From: a candidate division WOR-3 bacterium
GTDB lineage: Bacteria > Hydrothermota > Tepidihabitantia > Tepidihabitantales > Tepidihabitantaceae
Assembly (NCBI GenBank): GCA_965648905.1
Contig: CBFGIT010000039.1
Span: 1-22,104, forward strand
Direction of reading: 5' to 3'
DNA: 22,104 bases
How positions within the stretch are numbered: the first letter of the stretch is position 1; the number at the start of each line of letters is the position of its first letter. The notes beneath the pieces are model-generated. The model was not told where the DNA came from. It was given only the letters and a program-made list of their open reading frames with translations, and did not search any database. A program made the translations under genes and the position numbers. Below are positions 7,205-19,915 of this stretch, piece after piece.

Positions 7205-7278
7205 GCGCCCGTAGCTCAGATGGATAGAGCGGCAGACTCCGGATCTGCAGGCCACGCGTTCAACTCGCGTCGGGCGCT
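7205..7278 (+). tRNA. tRNA-Arg (anticodon CCG), CCA not encoded
   Basis: Acceptor GCGCCCG/CGGGCGC, D stem GCTC/GAGC with loop AGATGGATA (A20), anticodon stem GCAGA/TCTGC with loop CT-CCG-GA, T stem ACGCG/CGCGT with loop TTCAACT. Confidence 0.95.
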
Positions 7279-10879: not shown

Positions 10880-11419
10880 CTGGCTACCGAACCCGCGGCC
10901 CCGATCCTGAGCGAGCTCGCGCTGCTCATCAAGTCTCGCTACCCGGTCGTCTACTACGAATGCGTGGACGAGGAGTTCGGGCTGCGCGAACTCCAGGCCA
11001 TTGCCCGGCAGCTCGGGCTCGACCTCTACCGCTGGTCCCTGACCCGGGGTCTTGAGCTGCAGGTCGGGCCTGACTTCGCGCCCTACGAGCGGACCTTGGA
11101 GCCAGTCGCGATGCTTAAGCAGGTCGAGTCGCTCTGCGAATCACGCAGCCACCAGCCCGGGCTGTTCGTGCTGGTCGACTTCGACCGCCACCTTGAGGAC
11201 AACATGGTTCTACGGCTGTTCAAAGACGCGGTGGCCAGGGTGCGTGGTTCGCGCGACACCTTTGTCATCCTCGCCCACGATTACCGGCTGCCCGCAAGCC
11301 TGGAGCCGGACACAGCCTGCATTCGCGGCGGCTATCCGGCCGAGCACGAACTGGTCGGCGTGGTCAAGGAAGCGTTGCCGAAATGGGACGCATCCAGCCC
11401 GGCATCGCGGTCGACCTGA
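10880..11419 (+). CDS. N-terminal part of a Ycf46-like AAA ATPase (frameshifted; probable CTG start)
   Basis: Frame reads ELALLIKSRYPVVYYECVDEE...WSLTRGL...LFVLVDF, typical of the Ycf46 N-domain; no ATG/GTG/TTG in frame between stop 10784 and 10964; GGAG (10868-10871) 8 nt before CTG 10880. Confidence 0.7.
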   Translation: MATEPAAPILSELALLIKSRYPVVYYECVDEEFGLRELQAIARQLGLDLYRWSLTRGLELQVGPDFAPYERTLEPVAMLKQVESLCESRSHQPGLFVLVDFDRHLEDNMVLRLFKDAVARVRGSRDTFVILAHDYRLPASLEPDTACIRGGYPAEHELVGVVKEALPKWDASSPASRST

Positions 11420-12387
11420 ACCCGGATGACGTCCGGGCATTTGCCCGCGCCCTTCGGGGCCTGACCGTGCAGCAGGTGCGCAACGTTGTCTGTCAGTGCG
11501 GCCTGCGTTCGGGCCGGCTCTCCGGCGCCGACATCACTCTGCTTGAAGCTGCCAAGAAGAGAATCTTCGACCGGGAAGGCGTGCTTGAGTTCCACCTGAG
11601 CGAACGCCGCGACCATATCGCCGGATTCGACAACCTGAAGCGCTGGCTGGCCGAGCGCCGGGGCAGCTTCATGCACCCGGACGGCCTGCTGCCGCCGCCC
11701 AAGGGTGTGCTGCTCCTGGGGGTTCAGGGCTGCGGCAAGAGCCTGGCCGCCAAGGTCATTGCCCGGGAGCTTGAGCTGCCGCTCTACCGGCTCGACGTGG
11801 CCCGGCTGTACTCGAAGTACATCGGCGAGACCGAGCAGAACCTGCGCCACCTGCTGACGGTCGTCGACCAACTCGCGCCGCTCTGCCTCTGGCTCGATGA
11901 AATCGAGAAGGGCTTTGCCGCCTCGCGCAACGATGTGGACGGCGGCGTATCCCAGCGGGTCCTAGGCACGTTTCTCACCTGGATGCAGGAGCGAAAGTCA
12001 AGCTGCTTCATTGCTGCCACGGCCAACGATGTCGACCAACTGCCACCTGAGTTCATGCGCAAAGGTCGGTTCGATGAGACCTTCTTCGTCGACCTGCCTT
12101 CAGTTGAGCTGCGCGCGCAGGTCTTCCGCATCCACCTGGCCAGGCGCAATCTCCCGGTCGAGGAGTTTGACCTCGACCGACTGACCGAGGAATCCGAGGG
12201 TTTCAGCGGCGCGGAAATCGAGCAGGCGGTCATCTCCGCCCTCTACCGCGCCTCGAGCCGCAAAGAGCCGATTACGACCGACCACATCGTCGAGCAGCTC
12301 AGGGGCACACGCCCCATTTCCGTCGTCAAGGCCCAGGAAGTCGCGGCCCTGCGCAACTGGGCCCGCAGCCGTACCGTCCCGGCCTGA
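11383..12387 (+). CDS. C-terminal part of a Ycf46-like AAA+ ATPase
   Basis: GFDNLKRWL, Walker A GVQGCGKS, Walker B LWLDEIEK, ATAN, PPEFMRKGRFDE, GFSGAEIEQ, LRNWA; continues the upstream ORF in the -1 frame. Confidence 0.88.
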   Translation: MGRIQPGIAVDLNPDDVRAFARALRGLTVQQVRNVVCQCGLRSGRLSGADITLLEAAKKRIFDREGVLEFHLSERRDHIAGFDNLKRWLAERRGSFMHPDGLLPPPKGVLLLGVQGCGKSLAAKVIARELELPLYRLDVARLYSKYIGETEQNLRHLLTVVDQLAPLCLWLDEIEKGFAASRNDVDGGVSQRVLGTFLTWMQERKSSCFIAATANDVDQLPPEFMRKGRFDETFFVDLPSVELRAQVFRIHLARRNLPVEEFDLDRLTEESEGFSGAEIEQAVISALYRASSRKEPITTDHIVEQLRGTRPISVVKAQEVAALRNWARSRTVPA

Positions 12388-14970: not shown

Positions 14971-16083
14971 CTACGTTCCGCTGTCTTTGCTGCTCGCCGT
15001 GGACGCTGCGGCCGGCTGCCCGATGTAGAGCAGGCCGCCGGCAAGCGCGAGCCCTGCGGCCGTGAACATGATGGCACGGTAGCCGAATGCACCGGTGATT
15101 CCCTCGAGCAGAGCTCCGGCAACCGCGGCAAGACTGGCTGCAGACTGGAACATGCCGGCGGCAGTGGATTTCTCCGGGTTGAGCCGCATCAGCTCTTTGA
15201 GTGAGCCCAGGTACAGACACGACCAGGACAGGGCCAAAAAGACCTGAATCGGGATTACCTGCTGCCAGCTTCGCGCCAGGCCAAAGGCCGCGAACACCAG
15301 GGCTGACAGCGCGAATCCCCATATCACCATTGCCCGTTCGCGTGCCCGCTCCAGCAGATTGAGAAAGACAAACTGGCCGAACGGGTTGATGGCAAAGAGC
15401 ACACCGACGAGCAGCCGGCTGGCACCCAAGTCAGAGAGGTAGACCGGGAAGATGGTCCAGATGGAGAATGCGCCCGCATGGCGGAGGAAGAACGAAAGGT
15501 ACAGACGCCAGTTGCGTCGGAGCACGCGCGCATCCACGAACGGCTGGGCAAGACGGACGCGCTGAGGCTTGAGAGTCAGAGCGGCCAACAGCGCGGTCAG
15601 CACCATCACTGCGGCAGCAACCGGAAACACCCAGTCTGCGGGTATCATGCCCAGGGTGAACGCGCCGATGCCCCAGCCCAAAGAACCGAACCCGACAAAC
15701 CGTCCCAGCAGATTGGTCTGGTCTGAAGTGTAGGCCATCAGGGCCGCAGGAAAGCTGCCAACACAGATGCCGGCAAAGACCCGGGCAATGAGCAGACTGC
15801 CCAGACTCCGGGCAAGCACATGGGCGGCAAGCGCGAGCACTGAGACTGATATGCCCCAGACGACGAATCGCTTCCGGTCGCCGTAATCGGCCCAGCGGCC
15901 AAAGAGCATGCTTGAGACGAGCACCGCAGCCTGATAGGCAGCAACCAGGAATCCGATTTGGGAACTCGATGCTCCCATGCTTCGGGCCAGAAGCGGCACG
16001 TAGACAATCGTTGCCATCAGACCGGCATTGGTCAGCAGTTGTACCAGATTGGGGCCGGTCAGAGAAGCGGCCGGCCGGTTCAT
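14971..16083 (-). CDS. MFS transporter
   Basis: About 12 hydrophobic segments; motif A-like FGRWADYGDRKRF; ARVFAGI; ATG overlaps the upstream stop (ATGA). Confidence 0.88.
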   Translation of the reverse strand: MNRPAASLTGPNLVQLLTNAGLMATIVYVPLLARSMGASSSQIGFLVAAYQAAVLVSSMLFGRWADYGDRKRFVVWGISVSVLALAAHVLARSLGSLLIARVFAGICVGSFPAALMAYTSDQTNLLGRFVGFGSLGWGIGAFTLGMIPADWVFPVAAAVMVLTALLAALTLKPQRVRLAQPFVDARVLRRNWRLYLSFFLRHAGAFSIWTIFPVYLSDLGASRLLVGVLFAINPFGQFVFLNLLERARERAMVIWGFALSALVFAAFGLARSWQQVIPIQVFLALSWSCLYLGSLKELMRLNPEKSTAAGMFQSAASLAAVAGALLEGITGAFGYRAIMFTAAGLALAGGLLYIGQPAAASTASSKDSGT

Positions 16084-17825
16084 CGGGCCTCAAGCGGCAT
16101 GAGCCGGCTGAGCGGTGTCGCGTTGTACCACGCGGCCAGACGTTCGACTTCCGCGGTCCGGCCGAGCTCAAGCAGCAGTCGGCCGCGCCGAATCACGAAA
16201 AAGCGGTATCGTTCAAGCATCGCCTGAGTGCGTGCGTCAGGCACGTGCGGCGGCACCCGCACCGTCATCGGGTCGAAGCTGAACTCCGGCACGAGCGAAT
16301 CGGTCCTGAGCTGGAACAGAAGCCCGACCGGAACCCGACGCACGCCTGAGAGCATCTGCTGCGCATCAAGGTTCGCGTCGGCATCAAAGGTCGTGTACGC
16401 GGGCCGGTCTGGATGACGGGTGACAAAGCTCTCCAGGAGCGCGATAAAACTGCGCTGGATACCGGCCGGGTCGCGCAGCCGATTATGCTCGAACTGGTCC
16501 AGCCAGGCCCGGTACTGGTCGAGCTCAGGCCGCGATGCCTCGACCAGCCACGGGTATGCGCGGCCAAGGTAATCAAGATACCATGAGCGCCGCACCAGCT
16601 CTTTGTCGATCATGCACACGTCTCTTCTCATGCCCGCGACGTTTCTCAAGTAGAAGACCGGTGAGTAGACGTCCCACCAGTCGGTGATGATCGTAGCATT
16701 CGGTTCAGCCGAGAGCAGGGTGTTGACCGCGTGGTCATAAGCGACGTAGTCATGACGCCGGCTGGCACTGGCGTAGTTCAAGACAACGGCCAGCACTCCG
16801 GCCAGCCAGAGCAGGTGCTGCCACTTCCCGATGCGTCGCGCCAGGCCGTCAAGCCCGACCGCGCCAAAGACCGCAAGCGCCAGCACACACGGCAGGTAGT
16901 ACGACTCGATATCAGGAATGCTGTAGTTGACCGCGTAGAAGAAGGCGACGGCAGCGGTGACGAGCAGCCCGACCGCAAACGCGCGTCGCTGACGCAGAAG
17001 CCGCACCATCCCATACACCACAAGCGGCACCAGCACGTACCCGAAGCTCCGGGCCAGCAGACTCGAGCCCCGTGCCGCATTACGCCCCACCTCGGCAATG
17101 GGCAGCGAGAACATCCAGACCTGATACTGCTTGCCGGTGACATGCCAGATGAATCGCTCCAGTGTCTGGGGATTGCCCCATGCGAACAACGGCCCGGCCC
17201 TTGCTCTTAAGATGAGAAACAGGTAAGGGGAAACCCCGAGGAGAAACGCGCCGAACATGGCCGGCAGCCAGGGCATCAACCTGCGCCGCAGAACTAGAAA
17301 GACGCAGAGTCCGGCACCGAAGACCACACTGACCACGGACATGTGATTGGTCAGGGCAAGCCCGGAGATGTACCCGAACCAGACCAGTCCTCCGGATGCT
17401 GCTGAGGCCGTTCTTTCGGCTGCCAGCCACACCAGGACCGCGAGTACTAGGGTCAGGCTGTAGACCTCAACATCAACTGCGACTGCCCAGACTGGAAACG
17501 AGAACGCCAGGGCAAGTGCGCTTGCGCCTGCAGCAGTCACCGACACGCCCAGTTGCAGGACCAGAAAAAGAAAGAGCCCGACACCAGCCGCAGCCAGCAC
17601 TGCACTCAGCACTGCTACCCGGTTTACAACCTCGCCCAGCGGAACAAGGGTTGCCAGCCGGCCGAGCATCGTGTACAGCGGATAACCGGTTGGATGCAGG
17701 ATATTCAGCATCCAGCACCCGGCGGCCAGCTCGCCCGAGTCAATCAGGCCCACGGTCGGCGAAAGCGTGTACAGATAGACCGCGAATGCTGCGGGCACAA
17801 CGAGCCAGACCAGCCGACGGGTCAC
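16080..17825 (-). CDS. DUF2723/TMEM260-like membrane glycosyltransferase (GT-C type)
   Basis: TLSPTVGLIDSGEL...ILHPTGYPLY, VEVYSL, GLALTNH, WGNP motifs; multiple TM helices. Confidence 0.82.
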   Translation of the reverse strand: MTRRLVWLVVPAAFAVYLYTLSPTVGLIDSGELAAGCWMLNILHPTGYPLYTMLGRLATLVPLGEVVNRVAVLSAVLAAAGVGLFLFLVLQLGVSVTAAGASALALAFSFPVWAVAVDVEVYSLTLVLAVLVWLAAERTASAASGGLVWFGYISGLALTNHMSVVSVVFGAGLCVFLVLRRRLMPWLPAMFGAFLLGVSPYLFLILRARAGPLFAWGNPQTLERFIWHVTGKQYQVWMFSLPIAEVGRNAARGSSLLARSFGYVLVPLVVYGMVRLLRQRRAFAVGLLVTAAVAFFYAVNYSIPDIESYYLPCVLALAVFGAVGLDGLARRIGKWQHLLWLAGVLAVVLNYASASRRHDYVAYDHAVNTLLSAEPNATIITDWWDVYSPVFYLRNVAGMRRDVCMIDKELVRRSWYLDYLGRAYPWLVEASRPELDQYRAWLDQFEHNRLRDPAGIQRSFIALLESFVTRHPDRPAYTTFDADANLDAQQMLSGVRRVPVGLLFQLRTDSLVPEFSFDPMTVRVPPHVPDARTQAMLERYRFFVIRRGRLLLELGRTAEVERLAAWYNATPLSRLMPLEAR

Positions 17826-17840
17826 TGGCAGGCCCCAAAG

Positions 17841-17882
17841 GCGAATGCGGAAACCAGAATGCAGAATGCAGAAGTCAGAATC
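17841..17882 (+). repeat. Heptamer tandem array (CAGAATG consensus on + strand), downstream flank of the four-helix-bundle gene
   Basis: gcgaatg cggaaac cagaatg cagaatg cagaagt cagaatc. Confidence 0.85.
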
Positions 17883-18270
17883 ACTTCGACCGCGACTTGG
17901 CCGTGCGTATCGACGCGACGCATATCCTTACGAGTTCATCCGCCTCACGTGAGAGTGAATCGCCGTCGGCCAAGGGGACACCGGAACGGGCATCGAGTGA
18001 CAACCAGTACAGGCTCTCGCGCAACTCTTTGAGCACAACCTGCATCTTGTGAACGAAGTCGGCCCGGCTCTCCGCGGCACACGCCTCCTGGTAGTTGGCG
18101 CCGGCAGATGCCGCCGAGCGCATGAGCTGCCCGGCGAAGTACCTGCTGGCCGCAGTGCGGCCCATCTTGCTTGTGCCGACAACCACCTTGGTCGCAAAGG
18201 CCAGCAACCGCTCACCCAAGTCTTTCGCTCCACCTCCGGCACGGGCCCTTCTGCATTCACTATTCTGCAT
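17881..18270 (-). CDS. Four helix bundle protein (23S rRNA IVP / TIGR02436 family)
   Basis: DLGERLLAFA, GQLMRSAASAGANYQEA...ESRADFVHKMQVVLKELRESLYWL, EADELVRI...SIRTAK; ATG 18270 is the first ATG after the livF stop (the 18528 start overlaps livF). Confidence 0.9.
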   Translation of the reverse strand: MQNSECRRARAGGGAKDLGERLLAFATKVVVGTSKMGRTAASRYFAGQLMRSAASAGANYQEACAAESRADFVHKMQVVLKELRESLYWLSLDARSGVPLADGDSLSREADELVRICVASIRTAKSRSK

Positions 18271-18288
18271 TCTGTATTCAGCCTTCGG
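18247..18288 (-). repeat. Heptamer tandem array (CAGAATG consensus on - strand), upstream flank of the four-helix-bundle gene
   Basis: Minus strand ccgaagg ctgaata cagaatg cagaata gtgaatg cagaagg. Confidence 0.85.
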
Positions 18289-18295
18289 CCGTACG

Positions 18296-19000
18296 CTACT
18301 CTCCCAGATACGCGGCCTTGACCTTGGGGTCTTCGCGCAACTCTGCGGCCGGGCCGGAAAAGACCACTCTGCCGGTCTCAAGCACATAGGCCCGGTGGGC
18401 AACCTGTAGAGCCATGAACGCGTTCTGCTCAACCAGAAGAATCGCGGTGCCCTGACGGTTGATTTCCCGGATGATGGCGAATATCTCGCGCACAAGAATC
18501 GGCGAAAGACCCATCGACGGCTCGTCAAGCATCAGCAGCCTGGGACGGGCCATCAGACCCCGGCCCATCGCGAGCATCTGCTGCTCGCCGCCGGACAGAG
18601 TGCCGGCAGTCTGGTTCAGCCGCTCCTTGAGCCGGGGGAAAGACTGGAACACCCGTTCCATGGCCGCGGCGATTTCGCCTTTGTGCCGGGTGAATGCACC
18701 GAGCAGGAGATTCTCCCGCACCGACAGCAGAGCGAACGGCTGCCTGCCTTCAGGCACGTGGGCGATGCCCAACTGCGCGACCTTGTGTCCGCTCAGGCCG
18801 TCGATGCGGGAATTGCCCAGGAACACTTCGCCGGCCGAAGGCCTCGTGAGTCCGGACACCGTGCGCAGGGTTGTGCTCTTGCCCGCACCGTTCGCACCGA
18901 TGAGTGTCACGACCTCGCCCTCGTTCACCTCGAACGAGATGCCGTGCAGCGCCCGTATCGCGCCATAGTCAACGACAAGGTTCTGCACCCTCAGCAGCAC
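18296..19000 (-). CDS. livF: Branched-chain amino acid ABC transporter ATP-binding protein
   Basis: GANGAGKST, HVPEGR, LSGGEQQMLAMGR, LDEPSMGLSP, LLVEQNA, AYLG; SD GGAG. Confidence 0.93.
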   Translation of the reverse strand: MLLRVQNLVVDYGAIRALHGISFEVNEGEVVTLIGANGAGKSTTLRTVSGLTRPSAGEVFLGNSRIDGLSGHKVAQLGIAHVPEGRQPFALLSVRENLLLGAFTRHKGEIAAAMERVFQSFPRLKERLNQTAGTLSGGEQQMLAMGRGLMARPRLLMLDEPSMGLSPILVREIFAIIREINRQGTAILLVEQNAFMALQVAHRAYVLETGRVVFSGPAAELREDPKVKAAYLGE

Positions 19001-19042: not shown

Positions 19043-19915
19043 CTACTCCGCCTTGCCCAGGTACGCTTCGATAACTTTCGGGTCGGCCTGCACGGTCTCA
19101 GGTGCACCTTCGGCAATGAGCATGCCGAAGTCCATAACCATCACCCGCTGGCACACACCCATCACCACTTTCATCTGATGTTCAATCAGCAGCACGGTCA
19201 GCTTGAACTGGTCGTGGATGAAGTGAATCAACTCCATGAGCTGACCGACCTCAAACGGGTTCATGCCTGCAGCCGGCTCATCGAGAAGCAGCAGCCTGGG
19301 CCCGGCCACAAGCGCCCGAGCAATCTCGACCCGGCGCTGCTCGCCATAGGGCAGGTTGCGGGCCAGTTCGTGCTTCCGGCCCTCAAGGCCGAGCATCGAA
19401 AGCAGTTCCAGGGCCCGGTCGGCAACGCGCCGCTCTTCCTGATAGAACACCGGGCTGCGCAAGACCGATGCCAGAAGCCCGGCTTCGCCCTTGTGATGGT
19501 ACGCCACGCGCACGTTGTCGAGCACGGACAGCTCCTTGAACAGTCTGATGTTCTGGAACGTCCGGGCAATGCCGCGCTGATAGATGAGATAGGGCTTCAT
19601 CCCGCCGATTTCAGCGCCGCAGAATCGTATCGAACCCGCGGTCGGAACGTACATGCCGGTGATGAGGTTGAAGACCGTGGTCTTGCCCGCGCCGTTCGGT
19701 CCGATAAGACCAACCAGGTCGTGCTCGTGCAGGACCATGTTGAAGTCCCGCACCGCCTGCAACCCGCCGAACGACTTACCCAGGCCTCGAGTTTCCAGCA
19801 GCACGCTGTGCGGTCCCTCGTCACTGCGCCCCGACCGCGCTTGCGGAGCCCGTGCCCTGCATTCTGCCTTCTGCATTCTGCACTCTGGCTTCTGCATTCG
19901 CTCCTGGTCTTTCAT
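19043..19915 (-). CDS. livG: Branched-chain amino acid ABC transporter ATP-binding protein (alternative start GTG 19804)
   Basis: GPNGAGKTT, IARTFQNIRLF, LPYGEQRRVEIARAL, LLDEPAAG, DPKVIEAYLG. Confidence 0.93.
   Translation of the reverse strand: MKDQERMQKPECRMQKAECRARAPQARSGRSDEGPHSVLLETRGLGKSFGGLQAVRDFNMVLHEHDLVGLIGPNGAGKTTVFNLITGMYVPTAGSIRFCGAEIGGMKPYLIYQRGIARTFQNIRLFKELSVLDNVRVAYHHKGEAGLLASVLRSPVFYQEERRVADRALELLSMLGLEGRKHELARNLPYGEQRRVEIARALVAGPRLLLLDEPAAGMNPFEVGQLMELIHFIHDQFKLTVLLIEHQMKVVMGVCQRVMVMDFGMLIAEGAPETVQADPKVIEAYLGKAE
19853..19901 (-). repeat. Heptamer tandem array (7 units) at the livM/livG junction
   Basis: Minus strand gcgaatg cagaagc cagagtg cagaatg cagaagg cagaatg cagggca. 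Confidence 0.85.

Follow-up and report, generated by a model that had tools for sequence, protein, structure and literature searches.

What is a four-helix-bundle gene, enclosed by two oppositely oriented arrays of one 7-base word, doing inside a housekeeping operon, and do its product and its arrays belong together? This question is raised by the livF-DUF2723 junction of the genome studied here (G000), which was analysed in a window of 22,104 nt, the whole stretch of DNA under study. Profile matches identify the left host flank as a livF-type ABC ATPase gene (18296..19000, minus strand) and the right host flank as a gene for a DUF2723/TMEM260-like membrane protein (16080..17825, minus strand). 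Between them, the upstream arm (18247..18288, minus strand) begins 7 nt past the livF stop and runs across the start codon of the small gene. It consists of six NNGAANN heptamers of the CAGAATG type (CCGAAGG, CTGAATA, CAGAATG, CAGAATA, GTGAATG, CAGAAGG) in exact 7-register, with GAA at positions 3-5 of all six units and the exact CAGAATG in only one of them. The downstream arm (17841..17882, plus strand) bears the word of the upstream arm on the opposite strand, again in six heptamers (GCGAATG, CGGAAAC, CAGAATG, CAGAATG, CAGAAGT, CAGAATC), and its innermost unit overlaps the TGA stop of the four-helix gene. That gene (17881..18270, minus strand) starts at an in-frame ATG at 18270, within the upstream arm, and encodes a product of 129 aa.

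Both arms were found by sequence reading, by an inverted-repeat search and by TRF, which detects both cassette arrays. No inverted repeat in 17000-19000 is longer than the one they form together (39 nt, 77% complementary, with a spacing of 368 nt), and the pattern GAAN4GAAN4GAAN4GAA occurs 6 times in the window, always inside the two arms, while 100 shuffles give 0 matches. The oppositely oriented six-unit arrays described in an initial annotation at 18288-18247 and 17882-17841 are thus confirmed, and its statement that the window holds no transposase or reverse transcriptase agrees with our scan of 18 window ORFs, none of which matched a transposase or RT family. No promoter or minus-strand terminator was matched in 17600-18600. 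Elsewhere in the window, a tRNA gene (7205-7278, plus strand) is the sole Rfam match, and two overlapping ORFs in different frames (10964-12387), the second of which encodes an AAA ATPase, may be a frameshifted gene; the first ORF presumably corresponds to the missing N-terminal part of that ATPase (Ycf46-like).

In order to see whether the cassette is an insertion, as the initial annotation had proposed, we compared the corresponding regions of 20 relatives, of which 16 keep livF beside DUF2723, three have another gene after livF and one has no liv genes. The four-helix gene is absent from all 16 syntenic junctions, and the junction, 470 bp long here, measures about 11-122 bp in these relatives. 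This supports the view of a cassette inserted in a housekeeping operon. In three relatives (G010, G018 and G022) the same junction holds inverted hairpins that lack a gene and are built from three other heptamers, and in the congener G001 it holds a short run of another unit. This junction has thus served more than once as a site for elements of a common design whose words differ. No target-site duplication was seen by eye, the nearest empty allele being only about 82% identical in the flanking genes, and there is no second copy of the cassette in G000. We conclude that the cassette appears and disappears between relatives, its arms matching its protein. As a separate observation, the liv operon of G010 (L031), a genome with 31 TIGR02436 hits, has gene-less hairpins at three successive junctions, made of a heptamer, a 9-mer and a heptamer, respectively.

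The encoded protein scores above both curated cut-offs, with 68.7 vs 24 bits for TIGR02436 and 42.6 vs 33.8 for PF05635, and it has every one of the 17 columns that are invariant in the subfamily alignment. Its AF2 model (pLDDT 91) shows four long helices, and a Foldseek search with this model returned 2RLD and 2GSC at E<1e-3, as well as the accessory protein Avd (4DWL) with a TM score of 0.69. The cassette protein thus has the four-helix fold of 2RLD and 2GSC that marks members of the family. Both of these structures contain five chains. A model of four copies of the cassette protein, rather than five, reached a score of 0.75 vs 0.02 for the best control; the mark used was reached by 20 of 30 solved pairs and by 1 of 23 single chains. 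Model runs agreed in 95% of contacts, with pLDDT of at least 87, and the interface residues named lie on helices 1-3, with none on helix 4. The pass of this model may stem from likeness to the solved relatives. The protein is predicted to form a five-part ring. It carries no known catalytic motif, and a single-protein viral scan with it found no relative.

Is the combination of gene and arms peculiar to this locus? The 310 homologous genes collected came from this and other named phyla as well as from metagenomes and viral contigs, and 281 of them had full flanks. We called arms by a strict rule, namely a 4-mer repeated at 7-nt spacing at least three times upstream with its complement at least three times downstream. 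Inverted period-7 arms were present at 173 of the 281 homologues, compared with 0 of 169 windows shifted by 450 bp and 65 of 841 swapped partners, and so the inverted 7-mer arrays for which the initial annotation proposed to test other TIGR02436 genes are indeed there. In 201 non-redundant loci with periodic arms the period was 7 in 189, 8 in nine and 6 in three. Further loci from other genomes of the phylum had inverted heptamer arms in 83 of 95 cases, and each of the seven classic paralogues in G000 has, by eye, arms of its own word. Unit similarity follows protein identity (Mantel r 0.26, permutation maximum 0.12). The most frequent number of units per arm, as well as the median, is five (153 of 378 arms), the number that a pentamer would call for if every subunit took one unit. 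The orientation of the cassettes equals the background of co-directional neighbours (44/54 and 45/61 of callable cases vs 79%). A unit-order shuffle (101/130) was discarded as evidence, as it favours the observed offset. These data show a family-wide package of gene and arms whose unit word is specific to each protein subfamily.

Genes of two other kinds associated with 9-base repeats were also seen in G000. At C19:12081-12476 (L485), a gene for a PF13366 (GxxExxY-type) nuclease is flanked by inverted 9-base arrays of the CACCAAGAG type, which suggests a second gene-plus-arms family with another period. Longer four-helix genes of a 'suffix' type at C6:66773 and C4:123479 (L008, L009) contain in-frame 9-base repeats encoding SDxSDx peptides.

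The anatomy of the cassette recalls the intervening sequence (IVS) in helix 45 of the Coxiella burnetii 23S rRNA, where GACAGAT heptamers precede the S23p start and RNase III cuts a 28-bp terminal stem (PMC4990558). According to the accessible text of that paper, both elements place a PF05635-type ORF between terminal inverted repeats, have heptamers just before the start, measure about 430-450 nt and are sporadically distributed; the same text draws no link from the heptamers to the protein. The initial annotation accordingly considered that the cassette may be an mRNA intervening sequence, with RNase III cutting the stem formed by the arms and thereby removing the gene from the operon transcript, as in the 23S rRNA. 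The terminal repeats can indeed form a stem around an S23p-type ORF: in the predicted RNA ensemble the arms pair with about 31 expected pairs, and their duplex is worth -48.5 kcal/mol. That part of the proposed fold stood, whereas the whole cassette region folds no better than shuffles (RNA z -0.88, DNA z -1.59), the arm stem is 71-77% paired, and the antisense duplex is as stable (-53.5 kcal/mol). The cassette, unlike the Coxiella element, lies in a protein-gene junction, between livF and DUF2723, and not in a helix of 23S or 16S rRNA.

Conservation as an mRNA stem would be expected to leave an excess of G·U mismatches on the transcribed strand. This bias is seen in the ordinary hairpins following stop codons in G000, which served as a positive control (47 vs 23, p 0.006), and not in the arms, whose G·U mismatches are balanced between the mRNA and the opposite strand (279 vs 301 at 226 loci), as they also are at the new loci (142 vs 141). 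Furthermore, no PF00636 match to RNase III was found in G000, which is 99.57% complete, and partial TIGR02191 matches in 3 of 41 genomes were all below the cut-off. With no G·U bias in spite of a working control, and no RNase III detected, excision is very improbable as the function of the arms, which we read instead as sites that are symmetric between the strands and face the gene on either side. Four public sequencing runs, assembled into contigs, gave partial coverage from a close strain; the single RNA run among them did not cover the cassette, and none of the joints listed, with 97 more beyond the listing, crosses it, so that they carry no weight for or against excision. If the protein does bind them, DNA is somewhat favoured as the ligand. 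Apart from the cassette, the lack of an RNase III above the cut-off in G000 and 40 relatives raises the possibility that this lineage matures its rRNA without that enzyme.

Next, we asked whether individual residues of the protein change together with the bases of the unit. Residues are numbered from positions 17884-18273 of the window, the first residue being 1, and Val119 lies on helix 4. At 145 loci of the clade with the cassette gene, 582 column-by-position tests with within-clade shuffles singled out residues 115, 119 and 122, all on helix 4. Residue 115 passed the family-wise correction at both block sizes, and residue 119 passed it with blocks up to 25 (FWER <0.004) and was not significant with blocks up to 12 (0.38). 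Residue 66, which was at the top of an initial ranking that included repeat-encoded N-terminal residues, failed in the redone scan and in the pair test described below. With Val, Thr or Ile at residue 119, position 3 of the unit is G at 47 of 58 loci, compared with 13 of 82 for other residues. The rule is also seen, phase-free, in the upstream arm alone (51/58 vs 18/86), and no arm overlaps codon 119. When the loci are divided into three strata of GC content, it holds in the upper two and does not reach significance in the lowest (4/11 vs 2/15). The cassette itself obeys it, having Val119 together with CAGA.

An alternative is that arms grown by slippage simply hitch-hike with a gene of some other function, the covariation being a result of shared ancestry. 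Kin do share units, and the tree is poorly supported. However, the rule succeeded in predicting hold-out loci from other genomes of the phylum (13/15 vs 4/30, p 3e-6), with p only 0.046 for those below 65% identity (4/6 vs 2/13). For a count of independent pairs, 25 bootstrap trees were computed with helix 4 left out, the discovery set being pooled in and unsupported branches retained. Residue 119 gave 16.4 concordant vs 2.0 discordant pairs on these weakly supported branches (median p 0.0009), residue 115 gave 14.3 vs 2.9 and residue 116 gave 8.4 vs 1.0, whereas residue 122 and ten other columns were not significant by median p. A stricter version limited to well-supported branches retained just 2 pairs and had no power. 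About 16 independent concordant pairs, concentrated on one helix face with 11 other columns null, are hard to reconcile with common descent only. Moreover, slippage gives homogeneous arrays, not one-period units with a fixed core and variable spacer that are inverted at both ends. Co-descent alone is thus improbable, albeit less so than excision. We conclude that residues 115, 116 and 119 covary with unit position 3, this being a correlation and not a measure of binding. Direct recognition of its own repeat by the protein is nevertheless probable.

Heptamer arrays are not confined to the cassettes in this genome. A strict search of G000 gave 153 period-7 arrays and 0-20 for other periods; by a looser score there are 269 at period 7 and 7, 0 and 0 at periods 8, 10 and 11, respectively (the period-5 count of 182 was obtained with a shorter window and so is not comparable with that for period 7). 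An inverted partner within 200 bp accompanies 23 of the 269 arrays vs 12 in the null, most arrays being solo arms, and 211 of the 269 have no copy of at least 40 nt at 90% elsewhere in G000. One solo array with the word of the cassette arms lies within the window, in frame ahead of the livG core (19857..19901, minus strand, found by TRF). Both this array and the roughly 270 related ones in the genome were missed in the initial annotation. It is the closest genome-wide match to the downstream arm (37/42; runner-up 36/42), above the cassette's own upstream arm (30/42 by hand count), and it is missing from the corresponding junction in the congener G001. Copying of arrays from near neighbours was considered and set aside, since the excess of 24/145 vs 1.8 shrank to 8/135 vs 1.6, five of them at cassettes, after larger duplications were removed; the livG array is not listed in that filtered test, and its 37/42 match comes solely from the unfiltered search.

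By our own gene calls, 99 arrays lie in genes, of which 62 are mid-gene and in frame, in both orientations. Five such in-frame sites were compared with relatives: at two of them the array is absent in all three alignable relatives, and no target-site duplication was seen by eye at any of the five. In a UvrA-like loop G000, G024 and G010 carry different arrays and G022 carries none. In-frame arrays have thus been gained separately at the same tolerant loops.

At the genome level the link of arrays to a cognate gene holds only in part. Among genomes of the family that have no TIGR02436 hit, 6 of 7 have 0-1 matches to the CAGAATG pattern; the other side of the account is G008, with 14 matches and no TIGR02436 hit, G015, with 174 matches and no gene of the cassette subfamily among its hits, and G020, with such a gene and 1 match. 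G015 and G008 are the exceptions that speak for mere co-descent. The match of genome-wide arrays to the units of resident genes gave p 0.007 against other taxa and was not significant against relatives (0.06) or GC-matched sets (0.08).

Several larger structures containing heptamers were noted in G000. A MITE-like element of 850 bp (C7:63089-63937), of which more than ten complete or partial copies exist, is bounded by imperfect terminal inverted repeats, lacks a called gene and includes a CAGAATG array as a passenger. Heptamer hairpins are the building blocks of tandem higher-order repeats at C1:113711-114336, and long same-strand mosaics of several heptamer words occur at C14:2606-3806.

A ring protein matched to a periodic repeat with a fixed core and a variable spacer is also found in TRAP, which has 11 subunits, reads a 5-nt period on ssRNA, has a fold unrelated to the four-helix bundle and lacks flanking inverted arms. 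By analogy, the pentamer would wrap single-stranded (CAGAAUG)5-6 over its own start codon, and near the starts of other genes, and so control translation, while the downstream arm would sequester the site by pairing. The ATG within the arm suits such a regulator, the residue-base covariation fits an RNA ligand equally well, and at co-directional junctions solo arrays place the purine-rich word on the mRNA in 48 cases vs 28. Further support, which at the same time speaks against a DNA ligand, comes from Avd, the only relative to have been studied structurally. It is a pentamer with sequence-dependent binding of nucleic acid by all five subunits (10.1101/2023.10.23.563531, PMC6182149), and in the accessible text of the first of these reports the ligand is an RNA stem-loop, touched by each of the five subunits, whose flipped bases enter crevices. 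MacGregor, too, proposed an RNA-binding regulator for the TAACTGA heptamers of Beggiatoaceae (PMC4679880). However, the arms lack the G·U bias of the control hairpins, arrays inside genes give the mRNA the purine word 37 times and its complement 50 times, and congeners differ in the arrays they have at genes unrelated to one another, which fits poorly with a regulon. We therefore regard this RNA regulator as unlikely, though the strongest of the alternatives. The suggestion in the initial annotation of a ring protein binding its own periodic repeats gains indirect support from the helix-4 covariation, the mode of five units and the interface model free of helix 4; its TRAP-like RNA ligand is not favoured by the strand symmetry.

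The likeness to Avd itself has limits. The cassette protein shares its fold and is 14% identical to it, no RT or template repeat lies near the cassette, and RT hits in G000 are confined to contigs C3 and C31, with none in the window. A true avd is found in a separate, complete-looking diversity-generating retroelement (DGR) at C3:87194-92431 (L482), with avd at 89226-89576, the template repeat at 89592-89722 and RT at 90323-91372. At the 3' ends of two target genes there, the departures from the template fall, by eye, at adenines. Ahead of avd comes a run of 8-base repeats, and a four-helix gene with heptamer arms (86804-87169) is found just upstream.

Considering the evidence together, we give an even chance to the reading that this is a selfish cassette of gene plus arms, whose predicted five-part ring likely binds its own arms, probably as DNA, through the outward face of helix 4, and which may help to copy arms and cassettes to new sites. 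In this ring each of the five subunits would take one heptamer unit, the outward face of helix 4 reading arms of five to six units. In the most speculative step, the bound ring would hold the arms for a repair or recombination enzyme of the host, which is invoked because the cassette protein has no known catalytic motif. The outcome of copying by such an enzyme would be cassettes, gene-less hairpins and solo arms. That the ring helps a host enzyme to copy arms into new places is a speculative idea, to which we give somewhat less than an even chance.

The proposed logic resembles that of RAYT and REPIN minus the transposase. According to the accessible part of PMC3116915, that system likewise combines a protein-coding gene with inverted repeats of its own on either side, dispersed gene-less doublets and singlets, and a repeat specific to each protein variant. 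Unlike RAYT, the cassette has no Y1 (HUH) transposase between its repeats: PF01797 does not match its gene, and the two Y1 hits of the genome are on C2 and C3. The arms are degenerate tandem heptamers and not palindromes, singlets dominate here rather than inverted doublets (the 23 paired arrays of 269 given above), and many arrays lie in frame in genes. One stand-alone Y1 transposase of RAYT-like size (C3:109283-109951, L483) adjoins uvrA.

Cyanobacterial STRR and SDR elements belong to the same class of heptamer repeats in period-7 arrays. The arrays described here share with the heptamers of Xanthomonas, Nostoc and Beggiatoaceae a period-7 intergenic arrangement near gene ends, often in inverted pairs, with some inside ORFs, as far as the accessible texts describe them. 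No protein partner is assigned to the GGGAATC repeats of Xanthomonas and Nostoc in the accessible text of PMC4692102, no four-helix partner is named for the TAACTGA repeats in that of PMC4679880 either, and the terms 'four helix' and 'intervening' are absent from the main texts of both papers. A full-text search, covering few subscription papers, found no description of the gene-plus-heptamer-arm class beyond the Coxiella IVS. To that precedent the present locus adds a host in which RNase III is not detectable, a test of strand symmetry with a control and a residue-base rule tested on hold-out loci.

The finding joins two long-open puzzles, namely the function of S23p/TIGR02436 proteins and the excess of 7-base repeats in many bacteria, and it yields a prediction of one residue for one base: Val119 should go with G, and Ala or Gly with A. 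In its broadest form, which is possible although we rather doubt it, TIGR02436 proteins would be a widespread class of pentamers that read repeats in a programmable way, by a code on helix 4 that relates residue to base, and their transposase-free mobility would write heptamer arrays into junctions and protein loops. They would then be the missing cause of heptanucleotide over-representation in bacteria and the source of ORF-bearing rRNA IVSs. If the protein also seeds arrays, it would be a small ring of tunable specificity and a previously unrecognised origin both of junction turnover and of in-frame insertions in the loops of essential proteins.
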